A stretch of DNA of 50,631 bases from a virus (taxonomy: Duplodnaviria > Heunggongvirae > Uroviricota > Caudoviricetes). Under the pieces are notes generated by a model, which worked only from the letters and a program-made list of their open reading frames with translations, did not search any database and was not told where the DNA came from. The stretch lies in IMG/VR virus record IMGVR_UViG_643348551_000005, one strand, 5' to 3'. Positions 9,795 to 22,434 of the stretch are shown here, one piece after another; positions within the stretch are counted from its first letter, which is position 1; each line of letters begins with the position of its first letter. Made by a program: the position numbers and the translations under genes.

Positions 9795-10541
9795 ATGAAA
9801 AATATTGCGACAGGCGATGTTCTTGAACGTATCCGCAGACTGGCCCCGTCACATGTAACCGCGCCATTCAAGACGGTAGCGGAGTGGCGCGAGTGGCAAC
9901 TTTCCGAAGGCCAGAAACGTTGTGAGGAGATCAACCGTCAGAATCGTCAGTTGCGGGTGGAAAAAATTCTGAATCGCTCTGGCATCCAGCCATTGCACCG
10001 CAAATGCTCGTTTTCGAATTACCAGGTGCAGAACGAAGGGCAGCGATACGCGTTGAGTCAGGCGAAATCCATCGCTGATGAACTGATGACCGGGTGTACA
10101 AATTTTGCGTTCAGCGGAAAACCTGGTACCGGGAAGAACCACTTAGCGGCAGCTATCGGGAATCGCCTGCTGAAAGACGGTCAGACAGTGATTGTGGTTA
10201 CCGTGGCTGATGTTATGAGTGCCCTGCACGCCAGCTATGACGATGGGCAGTCAGGCGAAAAATTTTTGCGGGAACTGTGCGAAGTGGATCTGCTGGTTCT
10301 TGATGAAATTGGCATTCAGCGCGAGACGAAAAACGAGCAGGTGGTACTGCACCAGATTGTTGATCGCCGGACAGCGTCGATGCGCAGCGTGGGGATGCTG
10401 ACAAACCTGAACTATGAGGTCATGAAAACATTGCTCGGCGAGCGGATATTGGATCGCATGACCATGAACGGCGGGCGATGGGTGAATTTTAACTGGGAGA
10501 GCTGGCGTCCGAATGTCGTCCAGCCAGGAATTGCGAAGTAA
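9795..10541 (+). CDS. ydaV: DnaC-like replication protein / helicase loader (AAA+ ATPase)
   Basis: Walker A motif [15 protein letters not shown] and Walker B LLVLDEIG are present; the arrangement is that of IstB/DnaC-family proteins. Confidence 0.85.
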
Positions 10542-10563
10542 TTTTTACCGGGAGAAAAATTTA

Positions 10564-11325
10564 ATGGAGACTGTTTTTGACGCACTGAAAGCAATGGGAA
10601 AAGCCACATCCATAGAACTTGCTGCGCGACTTGATATCAGTCGTGAAGAAGTGCTGAACGAACTATGGGAACTGAAAAAGGCTGGTTTTGTTGATAAAAG
10701 CGCGTACACCTGGCGTGTGGCTGATAACAATATTCAGCAGGAACAGCCAGCGCAGGCAGAACTGCCGGAAGAAATCACCACAGCAACAGTAGCGAAAATC
10801 TCAGAGTGCGATTTAACCGCGACGATTGAACAACGAGGACCACAAACGGCTGATGAGCTGGCTACATTGTTTGGTACCACATCACGCAAAGTGGCTTCAA
10901 CGCTGGCAATGGCAATCAGCAAAGGTCGTCTGATTCGCGTAAATCAGGGCGGTAAATTTCGTTACTGCATACCGGGCGATAATTTACCAGCAGAGCCGAA
11001 AGCAGCATCGGTAGCGGAAACTGATGGTAAGGCCTTTCCTCAGACCGCAGGTGTTGCGTTACCAGTACAGGAGGCTGCAACACAGGAAGATATTAAAACA
11101 GAAACTGTGGCGGACATTGTGCAGTCGCTGCCATCGTTTACTGAAACGCGAGCGGATGACCTGGTTTTACCATCACTGCATATGGCAAACCGCGAACTGC
11201 GTCGGGCGAAAAATCATCTCCAGAAGTGGGAGCGTGTCTGCGCCGCGCTGCGTGAGTTGAACAAGCACAGGGATATTGTACGACAGATTACTGATTCTTC
11301 CCGCCATGTTGCATCGGAAAAGTGA
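10564..11325 (+). CDS. Conserved prophage protein with predicted winged-helix domains (intact YdaW-like)
   Basis: 253-aa product from an ATG with an SD (GGAG) upstream. N-terminal winged-helix-like segment ([28 protein letters not shown]). Occupies the position of ydaW, which is a pseudogene in K-12. Confidence 0.55.
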
Positions 11326-11340
11326 TTGCCGGAGGCACCT

Positions 11341-11718
11341 ATGGCAAAAGTATTTACACCAGAAGAGCGAGAAAAAATTAAAGGACAGGTTGTTGAACTT
11401 GTACCTCTGAGCGGTCGCGAGACGTTACGGGCTCTGGAGGCTAAAACCGGTGCATCAAGGTATTACATAAGCACTCTCGCCAGAGAACTAGTCGCCAGTG
11501 GTGATGTTTACAATTCAGGCTACGGATTATTCCCGTCTGAGCAGGCGCGTAAAGACTGGCAAAACGCCCGCAAAAAACTATCAAGGACAAAGGTGAAGAA
11601 ACCGGTTGTGGTTGATCCTGACCTTATCTGGTCATTACCAGACGGAGAAATACGCCGTTACGACAGGCGTCTGAACATAATCTGTCGCGAGTGCCTGAAG
11701 AGTGAAGTTATGCAGTGA
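11341..11718 (+). CDS. Hypothetical prophage protein (125 aa)
   Basis: ATG with a good SD (GGAGG); coding-like composition; no recognisable domain. Confidence 0.5.
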   Translation: MAKVFTPEEREKIKGQVVELVPLSGRETLRALEAKTGASRYYISTLARELVASGDVYNSGYGLFPSEQARKDWQNARKKLSRTKVKKPVVVDPDLIWSLPDGEIRRYDRRLNIICRECLKSEVMQ

Positions 11719-12008
11719 ATATTGGCATTTTATCAGTGAATCATGCTGCATTTATAGGTATTTTTAGTTTAAATAGCATTGGTTCATATGTAAATTGACA
11801 TTTTTATGGTACAGGGTAGAACTAGTGTGGTTGCCTGCTTTGTGCCAGCTGCGGACATTACTTAAACAAATGCTGTATTATTTTATCGGTAAAGGTGGTA
11901 AAGAGTGGCCCTGAAGTGTCAAGATAATTATTAGCAGTATATATCATGCAAGAACCCATTTAATTTAGGCATGAAATTAATTTTAAAAAAGTAGAGGATT
12001 CCAATTAT

Positions 12009-13691
12009 ATGGCCAAACAGTTTATGTTAATGGAACCAAAAAATGAGAACTTCAATGAATTAATTGGAGGGTCAAATAAGTACATTGTTCCTAGATTCCA
12101 GCGAGACTATGCTTGGGATGTAGAACAATGGGAGGACCTTTGGAGTGATGTTACAGCACTTGATGATGAAGGTTTTCATTATATGGGATATATAGTTCTT
12201 CAACAAAAAGAACAGTATCAACATGAGGTCATTGACGGTCAACAACGATTAGTAACCTTGTCGATTATAGTTCTAGCAGCCATGAAAGCCATTAAAAACT
12301 TGATAGATAAAGGAGAGGAGGTTGAACAAAACACAGAGCGACTTGATGCAATAACAAAGACATTTGTGGGTAACAAAAACTTCGTTTCATTAAAGGTGGT
12401 TAGCAAGCTAGATTTAAATAGAAATAATAAAAGATATTTTCAAAGCATCTGTTCAAACTTAGAAGCTCCTAATACTCGTGGAACTACATCTACAAATAAG
12501 CTACTCAAGAAATGCTTTGATTTTTTCCAAAAGAAGGAGTTCGGTAATACCGGCGCTGAGATCGCACAGTTTATTGCCGATTTTTCTTCGAGTATGGTTT
12601 TTACAAAAATAGTTGTTCAAGATGATTTAAATGCATACAAAGTATTTGAAACTTTAAATGCGAGAGGAGTCCAGTTATCCACGCCAGATCTCTTAAAAAA
12701 CTATTTGTTTTCGATAGTAACTAAGGATGAGAAAATCGGAGATGAGGAATTAGATGAGTTAGATGAGCAATGGTCGGAGATTATCGATCAGTTGGGAGAA
12801 AGCAATGTTTCTGATTACATTAGGTATCATCATAATTCTCATAGAAAAATGGTCACAAAAAATAATTTATACACTTCAATGAGAAAAGTAATTACAACCC
12901 CTAAAGAAGCATACGATTATTTAAGATCACTGATAAATTCCGCACCTATTTATGCATCATTGATTAACCCGAATGATTCATGGTGGGCAGAGCAAGATAC
13001 TAAATACAAGAAGGCCATTCATTATCTGAACGGCATTAGACTCTTTAATATTAGACAGCCATTAACAGTATTGCTATCAGCTTTTAATCAATTCAATCCA
13101 GATGAGTTCGTCAGCCTGACTCGTTATTTATATATTTTATCAATTAGATACAATGTTATTTGTCATTTATCACCAAGTGAACAAGAAAGCATGTATAATC
13201 AAATTGCGATTAAGATCTCCAATAAGGAATACAAGAGAGCTAGCAATGTGAAAAATGGGGAGGAGTTTAAGAGGTTATATCCTGATGATAACGTGTTCTT
13301 TAATGCTTTTGAATTTCATCGAATGCCAAGTAGACAAACAGCCAAAAAAATTAGATTTCTCTTGGCTGAAATTGAACAATATCTTGGTAATAATTGCGAT
13401 CATGAAAAAGTTACACTCGAACATATTTGTCCATTTAACCCAGAGAAGGGGTGGTGCAATTCGTTTGGGGAGGGGGTTAATGACGTAAAGGATAGGTTAG
13501 GAAATATGGTTTTGATGGATAAAGATAATCTAAAAAGAGCTTCATTTGAAGTGAAGAAAAATGAATATGGAAAATCAAAGTATAAATTAGCGGCTAAGAT
13601 TACACAGTATCCTGAATGGAATTTAGAGGCTGTCAATGATTTTCAAAAATGGATGTCGGAACAAGCAGTAAATGTATGGAAAGTTGGTTAA
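12009..13691 (+). CDS. DUF262/DUF1524 two-domain nuclease, GmrSD-like (putative Type IV modification-dependent restriction enzyme)
   Basis: 560-aa ORF. N-terminal ParB/Srx-like DUF262 signature (IVPRFQRDYAWDVEQWEDLW ... VIDGQQRLVTLSII). C-terminal His-Me-finger DUF1524-like region (TLEHICPFNPEKGW ... RLGNMVLMDKDNLKRA). Lies in a low-GC island with an AT-rich upstream region. Confidence 0.75.
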   Translation: MAKQFMLMEPKNENFNELIGGSNKYIVPRFQRDYAWDVEQWEDLWSDVTALDDEGFHYMGYIVLQQKEQYQHEVIDGQQRLVTLSIIVLAAMKAIKNLIDKGEEVEQNTERLDAITKTFVGNKNFVSLKVVSKLDLNRNNKRYFQSICSNLEAPNTRGTTSTNKLLKKCFDFFQKKEFGNTGAEIAQFIADFSSSMVFTKIVVQDDLNAYKVFETLNARGVQLSTPDLLKNYLFSIVTKDEKIGDEELDELDEQWSEIIDQLGESNVSDYIRYHHNSHRKMVTKNNLYTSMRKVITTPKEAYDYLRSLINSAPIYASLINPNDSWWAEQDTKYKKAIHYLNGIRLFNIRQPLTVLLSAFNQFNPDEFVSLTRYLYILSIRYNVICHLSPSEQESMYNQIAIKISNKEYKRASNVKNGEEFKRLYPDDNVFFNAFEFHRMPSRQTAKKIRFLLAEIEQYLGNNCDHEKVTLEHICPFNPEKGWCNSFGEGVNDVKDRLGNMVLMDKDNLKRASFEVKKNEYGKSKYKLAAKITQYPEWNLEAVNDFQKWMSEQAVNVWKVG

Positions 13692-13815
13692 TCTATCAAT
13701 AAAACATAGGCGTAAGTGGGATGTTTTACTGACAGTTTGATGAGTCATGGATATCCTGCTAGGCCTACAACATGTCTTCAATTATATCATTACGAGATAG
13801 GCTCGATATTAACAA

Positions 13816-13839
13816 GTCCGCTCCTCGCTCAAAGCGGAC
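13816..13839. repeat. 24-nt motif GTCCGCTCCTCGCTCAAAGCGGAC (7-bp inverted repeat, 10-nt loop); copy 1
   Basis: Seen in sequence. Perfect stem GTCCGCT/AGCGGAC followed by CTTTCTTTTGC. A 20/24 direct-repeat copy lies at 15341-15364 on the other side of the 349-aa gene. Confidence 0.5.
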
Positions 13840-14218
13840 CTTTCTTTTGCATCTACCTTTTACTTTTCCCCTTTCTTCCGTATCTACTTTTCCCATGTAT
13901 ACGATTAATCCCCCCAGATACGACTTTAGCATTTTTCAGCTCTGCCGAGAAGAAAAAGGCGTGATTGTCAAAATTTAACGAAAACAAGCAGATTGTTGCG
14001 GATGGCGATTTTTTGTTTTCTTGGATGAAAAATGTGCATATTTTTGCTAAAAGTGGTTAAATATGTCTAACGGCGAATTAGCGACGAAGCGATACTCAGA
14101 TTTTCAACCAGAACGTTCGTCTGGCCTTAGATAGAATGGACATTTTTGGATCCACTTTGTCCACGGAGGGCCATATAAGTGCCAACGTTTTAAAAAAGCT
14201 ACTCAGGAGTATTTATAA

Positions 14219-15268
14219 ATGGGATTTATTTCACAACTATTCAATTTGCTTACCTCCAGGATAACTTCTGCAAAAACAATGACGCCTTCAAGTTTGCATG
14301 AGTTAACAGCTAACATAACTCCTAAACTCAAGAAACAAAACGGAAATATATCAATCGAAAACGATTGGCTTACTATTGATTCTCCTTATTTTTTTGGACA
14401 GGCGTATCTGTCTGCAAACAAACATTGGGTTGTAGGCTGTAGTGACTTTGATGGCAATGGAAGGGGAGGGCACCGGGAAAGTGGATTTGGAACAGTTGTT
14501 TTAGTTAATAAACCAACTTTTCGTATCCTTCATAAGCTCAGAACTATTGCCCGACCATTTAATGCTGCTGTCGCTGACACAGGTGATTATATTGTTCATG
14601 ACGCTGGATTTGGTTCTGCGCTGCAAGCTGATTTGATTGCTATTGATGTTGAAGGAAATGAAAAGTTTAGACGTCATTATGAAGCAAATATCTATAATAT
14701 CGGAATTTCTCATTGTGGTAAATACGCATCGGTTCAGACAGCCGCAGCGCCCGGTAAAGATGGAAATATCCTTGAGGTAATAAATCTGTGGTCAAAAACA
14801 ACAATATTTTCCATTAAACCTGAGTATGGATGGGCTGATAGTTATTTCTTCGATCTCGATGAAAATGGGGGGCTAAGATCGCTGAAAGTGAAATGCAAAA
14901 ATATTGGATACTTCAGATACACTGCCATCGGTATTCCCATTGACGTGGAAGCGTATAAAGATGCTTGTCTATATAAAGGAAATTTCAACCTTAAAGTAGA
15001 GGCCGCGAGAGCGCTTTTAAGAGAACATCCCAGTGAGAAGAATGCTCAAAAAGCATTGAAAGCAATTGAAATGGCTCTTAATGAAGGAGCGAAAGACCGA
15101 ACTGACTGGGCTGCAGCCGCATTTCGCATCAAAGGTGAAGCAAATGATTTACTTGGTAACTTTAGTGATGCTCTTGATGCCTATGAAAAAGCTTTGAGCT
15201 TTAATCCAAAAATAGGGGTTCAGAGACGAGTTAATGCTCTGCGTAAAAAATTACAGAGATTAAAATAA
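14219..15268 (+). CDS. Hypothetical protein (349 aa) with C-terminal TPR-like helical repeats; function unknown
   Basis: ATG with an SD (AGGAG) upstream. Low-GC codon usage like the neighbouring GmrSD-like gene. The C-terminal roughly 90 aa are helical-repeat-like (KALKAIEMALNEGAKDRTDWAAAAFRIKGEANDLLGNFSDALDAYEKALSFNP). No signal peptide and no catalytic motif that I can recognise. Confidence 0.6.
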   Translation: MGFISQLFNLLTSRITSAKTMTPSSLHELTANITPKLKKQNGNISIENDWLTIDSPYFFGQAYLSANKHWVVGCSDFDGNGRGGHRESGFGTVVLVNKPTFRILHKLRTIARPFNAAVADTGDYIVHDAGFGSALQADLIAIDVEGNEKFRRHYEANIYNIGISHCGKYASVQTAAAPGKDGNILEVINLWSKTTIFSIKPEYGWADSYFFDLDENGGLRSLKVKCKNIGYFRYTAIGIPIDVEAYKDACLYKGNFNLKVEAARALLREHPSEKNAQKALKAIEMALNEGAKDRTDWAAAAFRIKGEANDLLGNFSDALDAYEKALSFNPKIGVQRRVNALRKKLQRLK

Positions 15269-15340
15269 AACCAGCAAGTATCACGATAGAGAAATTTTTT
15301 CGGAACTACCTGTAGTGATTATGTTTCTATATACACCAAA

Positions 15341-15364
15341 GTTAGCTCCTCGTTCAAAGCAGAC
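15341..15364. repeat. Degenerate second copy (GTTAGCTCCTCGTTCAAAGCAGAC) of the 13816-13839 motif
   Basis: 20 of 24 positions identical to copy 1, same orientation, about 1.5 kb away. Together the two copies bracket the 349-aa gene. Confidence 0.45.
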
Positions 15365-15542
15365 TAGATGTTGGCTTCCGTCGGACTTGGCGTATTTAAA
15401 GAAGTGCTGGTAGTGACTGGTTGTTGTATTCCATTTCTACAGAACAAAATCACAGAAACTATACCCAATAGTTGTATTGAATCACTGACGAGACAGCCTC
15501 ATATTTATCAGGGCAGGTGCACGTCTAATACAGGAGGTTGTC

Positions 15543-15632
15543 GTGCTGGTTCTCAAGTGTGCGTTGGCTATTGCGGCTGTGGTGGCAATTTATTGTCTTG
15601 CTATTGTTCTTATGGATCGCCTTTCTGATTGA
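15543..15632 (+). CDS. Candidate small hydrophobic peptide (29 aa, GTG start)
   Basis: AGGAGG SD at 15532-15537, 5 nt before GTG. Hand translation VLVLKCALAIAAVVAIYCLAIVLMDRLSD gives one transmembrane-like helix plus a charged tail. No homology claimed. Confidence 0.3.
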   Translation: MLVLKCALAIAAVVAIYCLAIVLMDRLSD

Positions 15633-15752
15633 TTTCATATTGGCGAAGTAAAGGGGGTTAAATAGTATGGCTGCGGGGGCTTGAGGCTATCTGCCTTGGG
15701 CATGAAAACCAAAGGCAGATAGAAAAAGTCCCAGTTGATATTACTGTAGTGG

Positions 15753-17063
<1,311 letters not shown>

Positions 17064-18161: not shown

Positions 18162-18451
18162 TGGTGAATTTACGTAAAGCGGCTAAAGGCCAGATGTGCC
18201 AGATCAGAATCCCTGGCTACTGCAATCACAATCCCGAAACCTCTGTGCTGGCGCATTACAGGCTGGCGGGGACGTGCGGAACAGCGACAAAACCACACGA
18301 TATGCAGGCGGCGATAGCCTGTAGCTCATGCCACGATCTAATCGACGGGCGGGTAAAAACCAGCGATTACACCAAAGAAGAATTGCGCCTGATGCATGCT
18401 GAAGGGGTTTTTCGCACACAAGAAATCTGGAGAAAGAAAGGTCATTTATGA
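18161..18451 (+). CDS. YbcO-like nin-region putative nuclease (DUF1364, Cys/His-rich)
   Basis: 96-aa product MVNLRKAAKGQMCQIRIPGYCNHNPETSVLAHYRLAG...ACSSCHD resembles DLP12 YbcO from memory, with the same Cys/His spacing. Confidence 0.7.
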   Translation: MVNLRKAAKGQMCQIRIPGYCNHNPETSVLAHYRLAGTCGTATKPHDMQAAIACSSCHDLIDGRVKTSDYTKEELRLMHAEGVFRTQEIWRKKGHL

Positions 18452-18990
18452 TTTACCCAACGAATACAGGAAAAAGCGGAGAACACCTTCGCCTCACCAC
18501 GCTGGAAAGTGTCTGGATTCAGGGAAAACTACGTATGTGGGGGCGCTGGTCGTATATTGGCGGTGGCAGGTCAGGGAATATGTTCAATCAGTTGTTGGCA
18601 TCCAAAAAACTGACGAAAACAGCCATTAATGAAGCCCTGCGCAGAATGAAAAAAGCGGGAATAGAGAAAGCTGAGCTGGAAGCGTTTTTGCGAGAGATGA
18701 TCAACGGCAAGCAAAAGAGCTGGCTGGCGCATTGTACTGATGCAGAGGCGTTATGTATTGATCGAGTCATAAGTGAGGTGCTGGCAGAGCATCCAGGATT
18801 GATTTGCATTCTCCGGCAACGCTATGAAGGGCGGGGGATGACTAAGCGCAAAATGGCTGAATTGCTAAATGATGCACACCCAGAGTGGTGTTTTAGCACA
18901 TGCGAAAAACGGATTGCTAATTGGTTAGCTGTTGCTGAGTATGCCCTATATATTCCCATGCGTGAATCATTTGCTGAGAAAATGGCTTGA
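18448..18990 (+). CDS. Late-gene antitermination protein Q (Phage_antitermQ-like)
   Basis: 180-aa ORF directly upstream of an AT-rich region with intrinsic terminators and the lysis cassette. The N-terminal W..GRW...GGG pattern and Cys/His-rich core resemble Q-family antiterminators. Confidence 0.65.
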   Translation: MIYPTNTGKSGEHLRLTTLESVWIQGKLRMWGRWSYIGGGRSGNMFNQLLASKKLTKTAINEALRRMKKAGIEKAELEAFLREMINGKQKSWLAHCTDAEALCIDRVISEVLAEHPGLICILRQRYEGRGMTKRKMAELLNDAHPEWCFSTCEKRIANWLAVAEYALYIPMRESFAEKMA

Positions 18991-19070: not shown

Positions 19071-19097
19071 AAAAAAACCGCTTAATGCGGTTTTTTT
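19071..19097. terminator. Bidirectional intrinsic terminator hairpin (AAAAAAACCGC-TTAAT-GCGGTTTTTTT)
   Basis: Perfect inverted repeat with A-tract and T-tract flanks, about 80 nt downstream of the Q stop. Confidence 0.7.
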
Positions 19098-19417
19098 ACG
19101 TCAGGAAAGCAGGGGAGAATGCTGCTAGTTGGGCAACTGGTCTTTCTGCTCCAAATTATAACAGAGACCAATTATAGTTTCGGTGCTGTGTTTTTTTTAC
19201 AATATTGTGATAACACATTGCTGGCGGGAGTTTTGATATTTCTTGGCAGGGGCTGATGATGCGTTATCCTGATGTCGTCAACTCATATAAAATGAGATGA
19301 GAGATCATTGCAGGGTGGTTTGTAATTCGCTGTTTAGCGGGACAATATGTTGTCTGATACAAGACACCCGACGCCTCAGATTACTATAATAAAGACGAAG
19401 CATCCTTTGTATTGACC

Positions 19418-19443
19418 AACCGCCTGTTTAGGCGGTTCTTTTT
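19418..19443 (+). terminator. Intrinsic terminator (AACCGCC-TGTTTA-GGCGGTT-CTTTTT); candidate tR'-like late terminator
   Basis: 7-bp GC-rich stem followed by a T-tract, in the noncoding stretch between Q and the late genes. Confidence 0.55.
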
Positions 19444-20034
19444 GGGCTGGTTTATTGTATGCCAAATGATTATTAAAAAGGTTGTGTTAATAACAAAATC
19501 CGAAATAATATGCCTGCATATTTTTATCTTGCTTATATTCTGCATATTGTGCATAGCAGGCTCATCCCTGCAATCAAAACTGTATGATGAGTATTTTTTG
19601 TTTTCCTTTTTTCCAGTCATCTGATGATGACCTGCTTCTTTTTAATCCGGAACGACATCAGTTTTTTAAGATAATTCCTGCGAGTTATATGCATAAATAC
19701 CACAAACTCCGCATTTTATGTGGTTGGGAGTTGCCGGGCGCGCAGTGAGTTTGCTAAGAAAACTCCTGCATGGTGAATCCCCCTGTGCGGTGGGGTGATA
19801 CCATTAACCTTTTCTGTCGCCGACAGGTATCACGAACATTTTGTTCACCGGGAGGCACCCGGCACCATGCACTTCAATAGATTCTCTCCACATTATGGAT
19901 ATTCTTTCAGAATATCCCACGCAGACTTTGTGTAAATGTTAACAAATGTGCGTTTTATTTGATCTGATTCGCTGTTTGAGCGTCCAAAACAACGGTATAT
20001 ATAATCCTTTACTATATGACATATGTGAGGAAAA

Positions 20035-20463
20035 ATGGGTTTTCGTAGCGCATCAATTCTTACGTTGATTATTAGTGGGATTATTATCGGGTGCACTGAT
20101 GCTGTATCGACAAATTATCATGACCGTACATCATATTACTCCGATAAAGCAATAGAGACACAGTATGTGAGTTCATCTGAACGTACTTCTGATGTTAGTG
20201 AGGATATCCGTCTGTATGCCCATCAAATCAAGAGCGCCATCGAAAAACAGTTCGGGGATGCGAGTAAGTATTCAGGAAAAGAGTGTACACTGAGAATGCA
20301 TATGGCCCCGAATGGCCTTCTACTGGAGGTTAAAAGAGAAAGTGGAGACCTCGATTTATGTCGTGAAGCGATGAATGCGATAAAGAATGCTGATATACCT
20401 GCCCCCCCTTCGCCGGAAGTATATAAAGTATTTCAAAATGGGGTGCTGGATTTTAAACCCTGA
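20035..20463 (+). CDS. Lipoprotein with a C-terminal TolA-domain-III-like domain (paralog 1)
   Basis: SD (GAGGA) upstream. Signal peptide with lipobox (IIIGC). The C-terminal roughly 75 aa (YAHQIKSAIEKQFGDASKYSGKECTLRMHMAPNGLLLEVKRESGDLDLCREAMNAIKNADIPAPPSPEVYKVFQNGVLDFKP) closely resemble the C-terminal domain III of E. coli TolA as I remember it (...YAGQIKSAIESKFYDASSYAGKTCTLRIKLAPDGMLLDIKPEGG...YEVFKNAPLDFKP). Confidence 0.7.
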   Translation: MGFRSASILTLIISGIIIGCTDAVSTNYHDRTSYYSDKAIETQYVSSSERTSDVSEDIRLYAHQIKSAIEKQFGDASKYSGKECTLRMHMAPNGLLLEVKRESGDLDLCREAMNAIKNADIPAPPSPEVYKVFQNGVLDFKP

Positions 20464-20613
20464 TATTTATTGTTTTGTAATAAACGGTTTCGGCTTAGGT
20501 TTGTTCTGACACAGCTACGGCACTGAGCTAAATTTAGCGGATAGTCAGCTCTGAGCCAGTGGCGGACGTAACAACTACTATTGCTGAGATTTTAATGGAT
20601 TGAGGAGCAAGAA

Positions 20614-21009
20614 GTGGGATTAAAGAAAATCGTTATGTTGACTTTTTGGGTCGGTTTTGTTGCGGGATGCACACCTTTACACCCTTCAGATTGCCACAAA
20701 ACTACTGCTACAGGTAGTTGCAGTTCAGGACGCTGGGATGATCAGGATGAATGGGGGGCGCAAGCGCGGGGAATCAGAGCTGCAATTAATGCCAAACTTG
20801 ATGAGCCGCATAACTGGAAAGGGAAAAAATGCAGGTTGCATATGGAATTCTCTCAGGATGGCACGGCGTTAAAAATATCTACCAGTAACGGTGATAAAGC
20901 CTATTGCGAAGCGATAAAGTCCGCAGCTCATAAAGCCAAATTTCCGGCCTTCAACAATCCGGAAGTCTACAGAGATTTTCAGAAATCTGGCTTTGACATG
21001 CGAGGTTAG
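20614..21009 (+). CDS. Lipoprotein with a C-terminal TolA-domain-III-like domain (paralog 2, GTG start)
   Basis: SD (GAGGAG) 6 nt upstream of GTG. Signal peptide with lipobox (VAGC). C-terminal region (GKKCRLHMEFSQDGTALKISTSNGDKAYCEAIKSAAHKAKFPAFNNPEVYRDFQKSGFDMRG) is a diverged copy of the same TolA-III-like fold, with the two cysteines conserved. Confidence 0.65.
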   Translation: MGLKKIVMLTFWVGFVAGCTPLHPSDCHKTTATGSCSSGRWDDQDEWGAQARGIRAAINAKLDEPHNWKGKKCRLHMEFSQDGTALKISTSNGDKAYCEAIKSAAHKAKFPAFNNPEVYRDFQKSGFDMRG

Positions 21010-21260
21010 CTCTTCAATTACTATATCTCATTCATAGCAAACTGACAGATTTGATGATGTTCTATATACGAAACCTGTGATGTCAAGTCTGAGCTAATAC
21101 AAATAAACATAATATCAGAGAAATACATTTTATTAGCTCGCTACGGCGAGCTTTTTATATTGCATCGTCTCCAGCATATATATCAATTAAGGCTCTGATT
21201 GATGTGTCTGAAAGCCTACACATAATAACTATGCCATCCGTTCCGTGCGGAGGTGAGGCT

Positions 21261-21476
21261 ATGAAATCCATGGACAAAATTTCAACAGGCATTGCCTACG
21301 GCACCTCCGCAGGCAGTGCTGGCTACTGGTTTTTACAGTTGCTCGATAGAGTAACTCCGTCACAGTGGGCTGCAATCGGTGTGCTGGGTAGTCTGGTATT
21401 TGGCCTGCTGACGTACCTGACAAACCTTTATTTCAAGATTAAAGAAGATAAGCGCAAGGCTGCGAGAGGTGAATAA
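21261..21476 (+). CDS. essD: Holin (EssD-like pinholin, 71 aa)
   Basis: Strong SD (GGAGGTGAGG). Product [26 protein letters not shown]... with two transmembrane segments, matching DLP12 EssD from memory. Its stop overlaps the endolysin start. Confidence 0.82.
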
Positions 21477-21973
21477 TGCCTCCATCATTACGAAAAGTCG
21501 TTGCTGCTGCTATTGGTGGCGGAGCAATTGCTATAGCATCAGTGTTAATCACTGGCCCAAGTGGTAACGATGGTCTGGAAGGTGTCAGCTACATACCATA
21601 CAAAGATATTGTTGGTGTATGGACTGTATGTCACGGGCATACAGGAAAAGACATCATGCTCGGTAAAACGTATACCAAAGCAGAATGCAAAACACTCTTG
21701 AATAAAGACCTTGCCACGGTCGCCAGACAAATTAACCCGTACATCAAAGTCGATATACCGGAAACAACGCGCGGCGCTCTTTACTCATTCGTTTACAACG
21801 TGGGTGCTGGCAATTTCAGAACATCGACGCTTCTTCGCAAAATAAACCAGGGCGATATCAAAGGCGCATGTGATCAGCTACGTCGCTGGACATATGCTGG
21901 CGGTAAGCAATGGAAAGGTCTCATGACTCGTCGTGAGATTGAGCGTGAAATCTGTTTGTGGGGTCAGCAATGA
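21476..21973 (+). CDS. rrrD: SAR endolysin (lysozyme, GH24 / T4-lysozyme-like), RrrD-like
   Basis: N-terminal signal-anchor-release segment ([18 protein letters not shown]) followed by a lysozyme core ([25 protein letters not shown]). Near-identical to DLP12 RrrD from memory. Confidence 0.88.
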
Positions 21974-22434
21974 ACAGAGTAACCGCGATTATCTCCGCTC
22001 TGGTTATCTGCATCGTCGTCTGCCTGTCATGGGGTGTTAATCATTACCGTGATAACGCCATCGCCTACAAAGAACAGCGCGACAAAAATGCCAGAGAACT
22101 GAAGCTGGCGAACGCGGCAATTACTGACATGCAGATGCGTCAGCGTGATGTTGCTGCGCTCGATGCAAAATACACGAAGGAGTTAGCTGATGCGAAAGCT
22201 GAAAATGATGTTCTGCGTGATGATGTTGCCGCTGGTCGTCGTCGGTTGCACATCAAAGCAGTCTGTCAGTCAGTGCGTGAAGCCACCACCGCCTCCGGCG
22301 TGGATAATGCAGCCTCCCCCCGACTGGCAGACACCGCTGAACGGGATTATTTCACCCTCCGGGAACGACTGGTAATGATGCAGGCCCAACTTGAAGGTGC
22401 TCAGCAATACATAACCGAGCAGTGTTTAAAGTAA
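21970..22434 (+). CDS. Rz (i-spanin, inner-membrane subunit)
   Basis: N-terminal transmembrane segment, coiled-coil body, position right after the endolysin, and an embedded +1-frame Rz1. Confidence 0.82.
22190..22375 (+). CDS. Rz1 (o-spanin, outer-membrane lipoprotein) nested within Rz
   Basis: 61-aa ORF wholly inside Rz in another frame. SD (GAAGGAG) upstream. Lipobox VVGC followed by a proline-rich mature region ([15 protein letters not shown]). Confidence 0.8.

Follow-up and report, generated by a model that had tools for sequence, protein, structure and literature searches.

What could two short genes, each encoding a copy of the same TolA domain, be doing in a prophage? This question is raised by positions 20,035 to 21,009 of IMG/VR record IMGVR_UViG_643348551_000005, a stretch of 50,631 nucleotides (hereafter the window) which the PGAP annotation of an identical locus and Pfam matches identify as a segment of an E. 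coli chromosome with a full-length Rac-type prophage. Here two consecutive open reading frames (ORFs), ORF1 and ORF2, encode small proteins with a lipoprotein signal at one end and the third domain of TolA (TolA-III) at the other. Group A colicins and filamentous phages alike enter cells by way of TolA-III, and immunity to these agents is usually explained by specific immunity proteins or by the loss of a receptor. As set out below, ORF1 and ORF2 may act as outer-membrane-tethered, uncoupled decoys for TolA-dependent colicins and filamentous phages, a reading that we favour tentatively and place a little under an even chance.

The C-terminal domains of both proteins are bona fide TolA-III. The Pfam model of the TolA C-terminal domain (PF06519) matched ORF1 with 82.6 bits (E-value 2.4e-23) and ORF2 with 54.6 bits (1.3e-14), both well over the cut-off of 25. 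The similarity to E. coli TolA is significant as well: phmmer against the TolA-III entries of the PDB gave E-values of 5e-28 for ORF1 and 5e-9 for ORF2, and 52 of 88 columns (59%) and 27 of 81 (~33%), respectively, are identical to TolA 334-421. Both ORFs have the cysteines equivalent to C363 and C388 of TolA, and neither family shows any variation at these two positions. AlphaFold models both domains with high confidence (predicted local distance difference test score, pLDDT, of ~90 over residues 51-142 of ORF1 and 45-131 of ORF2). The modelled fold is alpha/beta with a sheet of three strands and can be superposed on solved structures of TolA-III. The best Foldseek match of ORF1 was 2x9a_B, which is TolA-III from the complex with g3p of phage If1 (root-mean-square deviation 0.6 Å over 88 columns, target-normalised template modelling score 0.96), and that of ORF2 was 3qdp (1.1 Å over 86 columns, 0.92). 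The first-pass annotation of the window had recognised the TolA-III-like C-termini with their two cysteines and had proposed an alignment to E. coli TolA and a search with a TolA C-terminal profile; both searches bear it out.

The remainder of the two proteins sets them apart from TolA itself. Neither has the transmembrane domain I or the long helical domain II of TolA; the N-terminus is a cleavable lipoprotein signal. The NCBIfam TolA models align to the ORFs only over the last ~80-98 positions, starting from model position 265 or 293. Both ORFs fail the TolA equivalog NF007065 (107.8 for ORF1 and 53.7 for ORF2, cut-off 213); with TIGR02794 ORF2 fails (47.2, cut-off 59.45) and ORF1 passes (75.6), via its C-terminal 98 positions only. 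In addition, the genes are located away from the tol-pal operon, in the Rac-type prophage. As domains I and II are absent, coupling to the TolQR motor and energising by it are impossible, and neither protein can serve as TolA. All matches listed in the search with ORF1 carry the label 'tolA', and for ORF1 RefSeq/PGAP gives a tolA pseudogene, 'incomplete; missing N-terminus' (20304-20564 of L002, the identical locus). This label is an artefact, because a short protein was matched to the full-length TolA equivalog model, and it is of practical relevance as a mislabelling in a public resource.

That both proteins carry a signal peptide and a lipobox had already been noted in the first-pass annotation and was confirmed from the sequence. 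The signal peptides read MGFRSASILTLIISGIIIG before C20 in ORF1 and MGLKKIVMLTFWVGFVAG before C19 in ORF2. The signal regions, MGFR-SASILTLIISGII-IGC and MGLKK-IVMLTFWVGF-VAGC, are composed of a positively charged n-region, a hydrophobic h-region and the lipobox, and both match the lipobox pattern [LVI][ASTVI][GAS]C. In lipoproteins an Asp at position +2, next to the lipid-modified cysteine, marks avoidance of the Lol pathway. In both ORFs this residue is Thr (C-T-D and C-T-P), not Asp, which predicts sorting to the outer membrane. PGAP starts ORF2 at an internal ATG (20635), which leaves the signal peptide without its Lys-Lys n-region. The better-fitting start is the GTG at 20614, which has AGGAG upstream (Table 1).

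Between anchor and domain lies a tether of ~25-30 residues in both proteins. In ORF1 it is rich in Ser, Thr and Tyr and modelled with pLDDT <50 throughout, whereas in ORF2 it is only partly of low confidence (pLDDT <50 to residue 24, then 54 and 68 over residues 21-40). An extra cysteine pair of ORF2, C27/C36 (20692-20721), lies in this tether in the arrangement C-HKTTAxGS-C, which is invariant in the ORF2 family and modelled as a small hairpin, and to which ORF1 has no counterpart.

Ligands capture TolA-III by beta-strand augmentation, for which the domain offers two edges (PMC7391070, PMC4339652, PMC3365938). The beta3 edge (A415-K420) is the docking strand for the N1 domain of g3p (g3p-N1), for ColN and for the N-terminus of TolB, with backbone hydrogen bonds at D418 and K420 (PMC4339652). 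The beta2 edge (L375-P380) forms the colicin A site together with K368, K379 and K396 (PMC3365938). Parasite ligands bind TolA-III at ~1 µM and TolB at ~40 µM, a gap of ~40-fold (PMC4339652), and the affinity between TolA and TolB is given as 40-200 µM (PMC7391070, PMC4339652). Pal had also been named as a contact of TolA-III in the first-pass annotation, which is inaccurate as this partnership is disputed (PMC7391070).

Both ORFs retain the beta3 edge strand, and no prolines are introduced (APLDFKP in TolA, GVLDFKP in ORF1, SGFDMRG in ORF2). In 56 lipobox-bearing short homologues the conservation of L417, D418 and F419 equals or exceeds that in 51 full-length TolAs (0.68 versus 0.33 for D418). 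The beta2 strand reads LLDIKP in TolA, LLEVKR in ORF1 and ALKIST in ORF2. At the colicin A site ORF1 retains LLEVK, K379 and K396 and has His in place of K368, whereas in ORF2 all three lysines are lost (to E, S and H, respectively). ORF2 is also much more basic, with a net charge of ~+5 versus +1.7. Such surfaces would agree with the capture of ligands at beta3 in both proteins and, in ORF1 alone, with binding of the colicin A type. The colicin A lysines, mostly kept in one protein and all lost in the other, fit different ligand spectra, and the two probably differ in their ligand ranges.

The two genes had been taken for paralogs that diversified in place, a view which the wider distribution of both types does not uphold. 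They share only 25 of 81 aligned residues. ORF1-type genes were seen only in E. coli and Shigella; 898 of 5426 complete E. coli genomes contain the type, nearly always on the chromosome. The N-terminal halves of the ORF1-type homologues have diverged and the domains are conserved; variants at 65-91% identity are of full length, with lipobox and cysteine pair preserved. A 66%-identical variant stands alone in another lambdoid prophage, in the gene order Q (PF03589), TfpB, AraC, TolA-like, nanS-p, holin. ORF2-type genes were found in 1269 of the 5426 genomes, and 536 of their 1362 copies are on plasmids. On pO157 the gene is located between an IS3 element and toxB, and on IncI1 and IncK2/Z conjugative plasmids (pHUSEC41-1 and an IncK2/Z plasmid of S. 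sonnei) it sits at the nikB-trbC junction. On the archetype IncI1 plasmid R64 nikB abuts trbC (67391-72418), and the whole plasmid holds no ORF2-type homologue. Single ORF2-type genes also occupy unrelated non-phage chromosomal sites in Enterobacter, Citrobacter and Serratia, the Enterobacter site being common to many genomes. At three loci (5957-7736 of L016, L017 and L018) the Serratia gene adjoins a GmrSD-type nuclease gene and a HEPN-domain gene, a defence-island-like neighbourhood.

The DNA homology between the window and the plasmids begins ~30 bp upstream of the ORF2 start and stops at the ORF2 stop codon. This tight boundary, together with the low identity and the separate distributions, rules out a local tandem duplication: ORF1 and ORF2 represent two independent, separately acquired lineages, placed side by side in Rac and in phage mEp460. 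In the latter, the block of both genes is found behind a different Q. The Rac prophage of K-12 is not known to carry this region. When the phage genome database was searched with the DNA and with the ORF1 protein, only mEp460_ev081 had the block; the genes are rare in sequenced free phages though common in prophages.

A profile search of 1.84 billion representative proteins retrieved 589 relatives. Among the best 148 of these, 94 are not longer than 170 amino acids (aa), and 61 of the 94 have a lipobox in the first 45 residues. The named relatives come from Erwinia, Klebsiella and Serratia and have generic TolA labels only. Lipid-anchored TolA-III is thus a common and widespread architecture. 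The ratio of nonsynonymous to synonymous substitution rates (dN/dS) in the ORF2 family is 0.06-0.17 at dS 0.4-1.1, which indicates strong purifying selection. For ORF1 and its 66%-identical variant it is 0.26 in the domain and 0.45 in signal peptide and tether. In ~780 genomes the genes are intact at an identity of at least 99%, within a largely cryptic prophage.

In the decoy reading that we prefer, a free-standing TolA-III would be suspended by its tether on the periplasmic side of the outer membrane. Without domains I and II it would not be coupled to TolQR, and it would still present the exposed beta-strand edges at which TolA-III is captured. A colicin translocation domain that arrives through a porin, or the N1 domain of g3p, would meet the tethered decoy first and be held in a dead-end complex that is unable to drive import, and the lysogen or plasmid host would become tolerant. 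Because the parasite ligands bind at ~1 µM and TolB at ~40 µM, a moderately expressed decoy could trap invaders while Tol-Pal is spared. While the identity and fold of the domains, the lipoprotein signals, the conservation and the distribution are established by the data above, we infer the outer-membrane location, the expression, every binding event and the phenotype, and with them the function. The retained docking edges, the lost motor coupling, the affinity gap and the purifying selection count for the decoy. So does the behaviour of ORF1- and ORF2-type genes, which prophages, conjugative plasmids and chromosomes carry as self-sufficient accessory units. If1-type filamentous phages use pili that are made by I-complex plasmids. 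On a wider view, which we hold with yet more reserve than the decoy itself, lipid-anchored TolA-III might constitute a class of receptor-mimicking immunity factors that is mobile, widespread and broad in spectrum, with lineages tuned to different invaders. Copies on prophages, I-complex plasmids, pO157 and enterobacterial chromosomes would then intercept Tol-dependent bacteriocins and pilus-specific filamentous phages before these reach the energised TolQRA.

Known systems share single features with this proposal. With E. coli TolA-III (~330-421; PDB 1TOL, 2X9A, 3QDP/3QDR and 1S62) the ORFs have the Pfam family, the fold, the cysteine pair and the beta3 edge in common, and they differ from E. 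coli TolA in the lack of domains I and II, the N-terminal lipid anchor, the location outside the tol-pal operon on mobile elements and, for ORF2, the loss of the colicin A contact lysines. The soluble periplasmic TolA-III construct of the laboratory is likewise a free domain uncoupled from the motor; in work by Levengood-Freyermuth, Click and Webster from 1993 it reportedly rendered cells colicin-tolerant and leaky through titration of ligands. However, this construct is artificial and over-expressed, whereas ORF1 and ORF2 occur naturally. Their lipid anchor and tether would keep the domain near the outer membrane, and Tol-Pal could thereby suffer less damage.

Cor (phi80/N15/HK022), Llp (T5) and TraT (F) are small lipoproteins of the outer membrane, as ORF1 and ORF2 are predicted to be, and are likewise encoded on mobile elements; they protect the carrier cell from incoming agents, the role that we propose for ORF1 and ORF2. 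Cor and Llp inactivate the outer-membrane receptor FhuA, whereas ORF1 and ORF2 would imitate a periplasmic co-receptor. No sequence relationship was seen, as the only strong PHROG match was phrog_5772 and PADLOC gave no match. Host-produced g3p-N1 (pIII-N1) in superinfection immunity uses the same protein-protein interface and blocks Tol-dependent entry: in the periplasm it sequesters TolA, blocks phage and colicin A, lowers the uptake of phage by 4 logs and changes the sensitivity to colicin A (PMC10424213). It provides a precedent for sequestration in the reverse direction. There a ligand titrates the receptor and causes tol phenotypes, whereas ORF1 and ORF2, as receptor copies, would titrate the ligand.

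Several points weigh against the decoy. No functional study was found in the full-text literature searched, where mentions are limited to entries of the kind 'TolA protein, hypothetical protein' in a genome table of uropathogenic E. coli. Neither ORF has a PADLOC match at E<=1, and phrog_5772 is a family without assigned function. Beta-strand augmentation depends mostly on the backbone, and sequence conservation cannot show which ligands bind; the promoters and terminators around the genes are called from consensus matches only. Moreover, a TolA-III tethered at the outer membrane beside TolB-Pal could equally well compete for TolB and harm the host. This is the basis of the main rival explanation, in which the proteins are modulators of Tol-Pal. 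The tethered domain would bind the TolB N-terminus, compete with TolA, lower Pal mobilisation and loosen the outer membrane. In the prophage, ORF1 and ORF2 as first genes of the late transcript could weaken the outer membrane and so help spanin-mediated lysis; on plasmids and chromosomes vesicle production could be raised, in line with a review stating that modulating TolB interactions could regulate vesicle production (PMC7391070). The beta3 site of g3p and ColN also serves TolB (PMC4339652, PMC7391070), and this strand is retained in both ORFs, the predicted location places the domain beside TolB-Pal, and the genes lie directly 5' of the holin and 3' of the Q-like gene. However, the affinity of TolA for TolB is weak, and a tol phenotype is costly, yet the genes have stayed intact in a largely cryptic prophage. 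In addition they are found outside any lysis context on plasmids and chromosomes, and in the window a terminator-like hairpin separates them from the holin. We regard modulation of Tol-Pal as rather unlikely, roughly a one-in-four matter.

For ORF2 in particular, the fold might have been re-used for another periplasmic or outer-membrane partner, in an envelope function unrelated to colicins, filamentous phages and TolB. The fold shared by TolA-III and the TonB C-terminal domain is a general module for beta-strand capture, and the weak identity of ORF2 to TolA-III, its charge, the lost lysines and the family-specific Cys-loop in its tether would all agree with a different partner. The Enterobacter genes at their fixed, non-mobile chromosomal site also fit a housekeeping envelope role, and the ORF2 family is very strongly conserved across genera, whereas proteins in an arms race often diversify. 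On the other hand, no candidate partner gene is co-located in any of the contexts examined, and ORF1, with its high identity to E. coli TolA-III, has both known docking edges nearly intact; we consider such re-use improbable, at about one chance in five. By far the least probable reading, with almost no weight in our view, is that both genes are non-functional remnants, ORF1 a decayed fragment of a captured tolA and ORF2 a passenger without a role. It could draw on the pseudogene label and on the fact that Rac is often a cryptic prophage. The label, however, has the origin given above, and the pseudogene reading of ORF1 was rejected, since the gene is a complete ORF with ribosome-binding site, signal peptide and lipobox, its variants are conserved and dN/dS is below 1; the AlphaFold model is confident as well.

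If the decoy proves true, cells would gain tolerance to colicins and resistance to filamentous phages by a new route, through a natural and horizontally spread copy of the entry point. This would also be a new kind of exclusion, which imitates a periplasmic co-receptor and does not mask an outer-membrane receptor like Cor, Llp and TraT. About a quarter of the complete E. coli genomes are carriers, and pO157 and resistance plasmids of common types are among the carriers as well. Therapeutics based on colicins or phages, the hosts used in phage display and the competition between bacteria in the gut could be affected. If instead the tuning of TolB/Pal is true, this would be the first case of mobile elements regulating the stability or vesiculation of the outer membrane. 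They are common and annotated generically in public databases, and neither the architecture nor the function was found in the literature searched.

Table 1. Position of ORF1, ORF2 and the surrounding features in the window.
Feature	Position	Strand	Basis or remark
Q-like gene (DUF1133), upstream edge of slot	18448-18990	+	Pfam DUF1133 2.5e-107; PGAP 'DUF1133 family protein'
Bidirectional intrinsic-terminator-like hairpin AAAAAAACCGCTTAATGCGGTTTTTTT, perfect, just 3' of Q-like gene	19072-19098		read from sequence
Promoter-like site AAGACA-18-TATAAT, then GC hairpin and T-run within ~30 nt	19361-19445	+	consensus scan, sequence
STnc100 prophage small RNA (sRNA) element, directly 5' of ORF1	19738-19924	+	Rfam RF02076, full length
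Sigma-70 promoter-like site TTGAGC-18-TATAAT, 10/12, 30 bp 5' of ORF1	19976-20005	+	consensus scan only
ORF1, 142 aa	20035-20463	+	ATG start, GAGGA 5 nt upstream
ORF1 signal peptide, aa 1-19			
ORF1 lipid-modified Cys20	20092-20094		
ORF1 tether, aa 21-50			
ORF1 TolA-III, aa 51-142	20185-20460		
ORF2, 131 aa	20614-21009	+	GTG start, AGGAG 6 nt upstream
ORF2 signal peptide, aa 1-18			
ORF2 Cys19	20668-20670		
ORF2 tether, aa 20-44			
ORF2 TolA-III, aa 45-131	20746-21006		
Intrinsic-terminator-like hairpin AGCTCGCTACGGCGAGCT + TTTTT, between ORF2 and holin	21135-21160	+	consensus scan; hairpin 21135-21152
S21-type holin	21261-21476	+	Pfam Phage_holin_2_1
Lysozyme	21476-21973	+	Pfam Phage_lysozyme
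Rz	21958-22434	+	Pfam Phage_lysis
Rz1, embedded in Rz	22190-22375	+	Pfam Rz1

ORF1 and ORF2 are the only substantial ORFs from the Q-like gene to the holin (Table 1), and the lysis cassette (21261-22434, + strand) forms the downstream edge of the slot. The first-pass annotation had assigned the genes to the Q-to-holin moron slot of lambdoid phages. The flanks agree with this, and in other lambdoid phages the slot carries stx2 or nanS-p, plus STnc100. The weaker part is the identity of Q, as the product of the Q-like gene barely passes Phage_antitermQ (26.1 bits, cut-off 26) and the name 'Q antiterminator' is reasonable but not firm. In Stx2 phages STnc100, which is related to PasD, sits 75 nt downstream of stx2 (PMC12370729). 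Since STnc100 is found near stx2 there and an ORF1-type gene beside nanS-p and 5' of a holin of the same kind in another prophage, the position of ORF1 and ORF2 is the classic lambdoid accessory-gene ('moron') slot, exchangeable between phages. In Stx phages the slot typically has tRNA genes as well; none were found in the window.

The STnc100 match scores 86.6 bits (gathering threshold 47, E-value 4e-18). It looks like a modular element of the slot and could serve as a leader of the accessory genes. The hairpin behind the Q-like gene overlaps sub-threshold isrK-like matches on both strands, and ~270 bp beyond it the AAGACA-18-TATAAT site with its hairpin is a candidate for a late promoter with a very short leader terminator. 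The DNA upstream of the 66%-identical ORF1-type gene is unrelated to that of the window, so that the lack of the sigma-70 promoter-like site there does not speak for or against the site in front of ORF1. All promoter and terminator calls are consensus matches, and 11 promoter-like sites were found where 7.1 are expected.

The gene order of the prophage is intR, xisR, recET, kilR, sieB, replication genes, a 6-kb non-phage cargo, hokD, DUF1367, YbcO, DUF1133, ORF1 and ORF2, the S21-type holin, lysozyme, Rz/Rz1, trkG, and head and tail genes, with trkG thus following Rz. The cargo (~9970-16220; 10068-16318 in L002), between the replication genes and hokD, encodes a BCCT transporter, a DUF2254 protein, a LysR regulator, a gamma-glutamylcyclotransferase and an MFS transporter. 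Adjoining the toxin gene hokD there is a strong match to isrC (16812-16934, minus strand; RF01387, 150 bits), which is presumably an antisense or regulatory RNA of the hok-type module.

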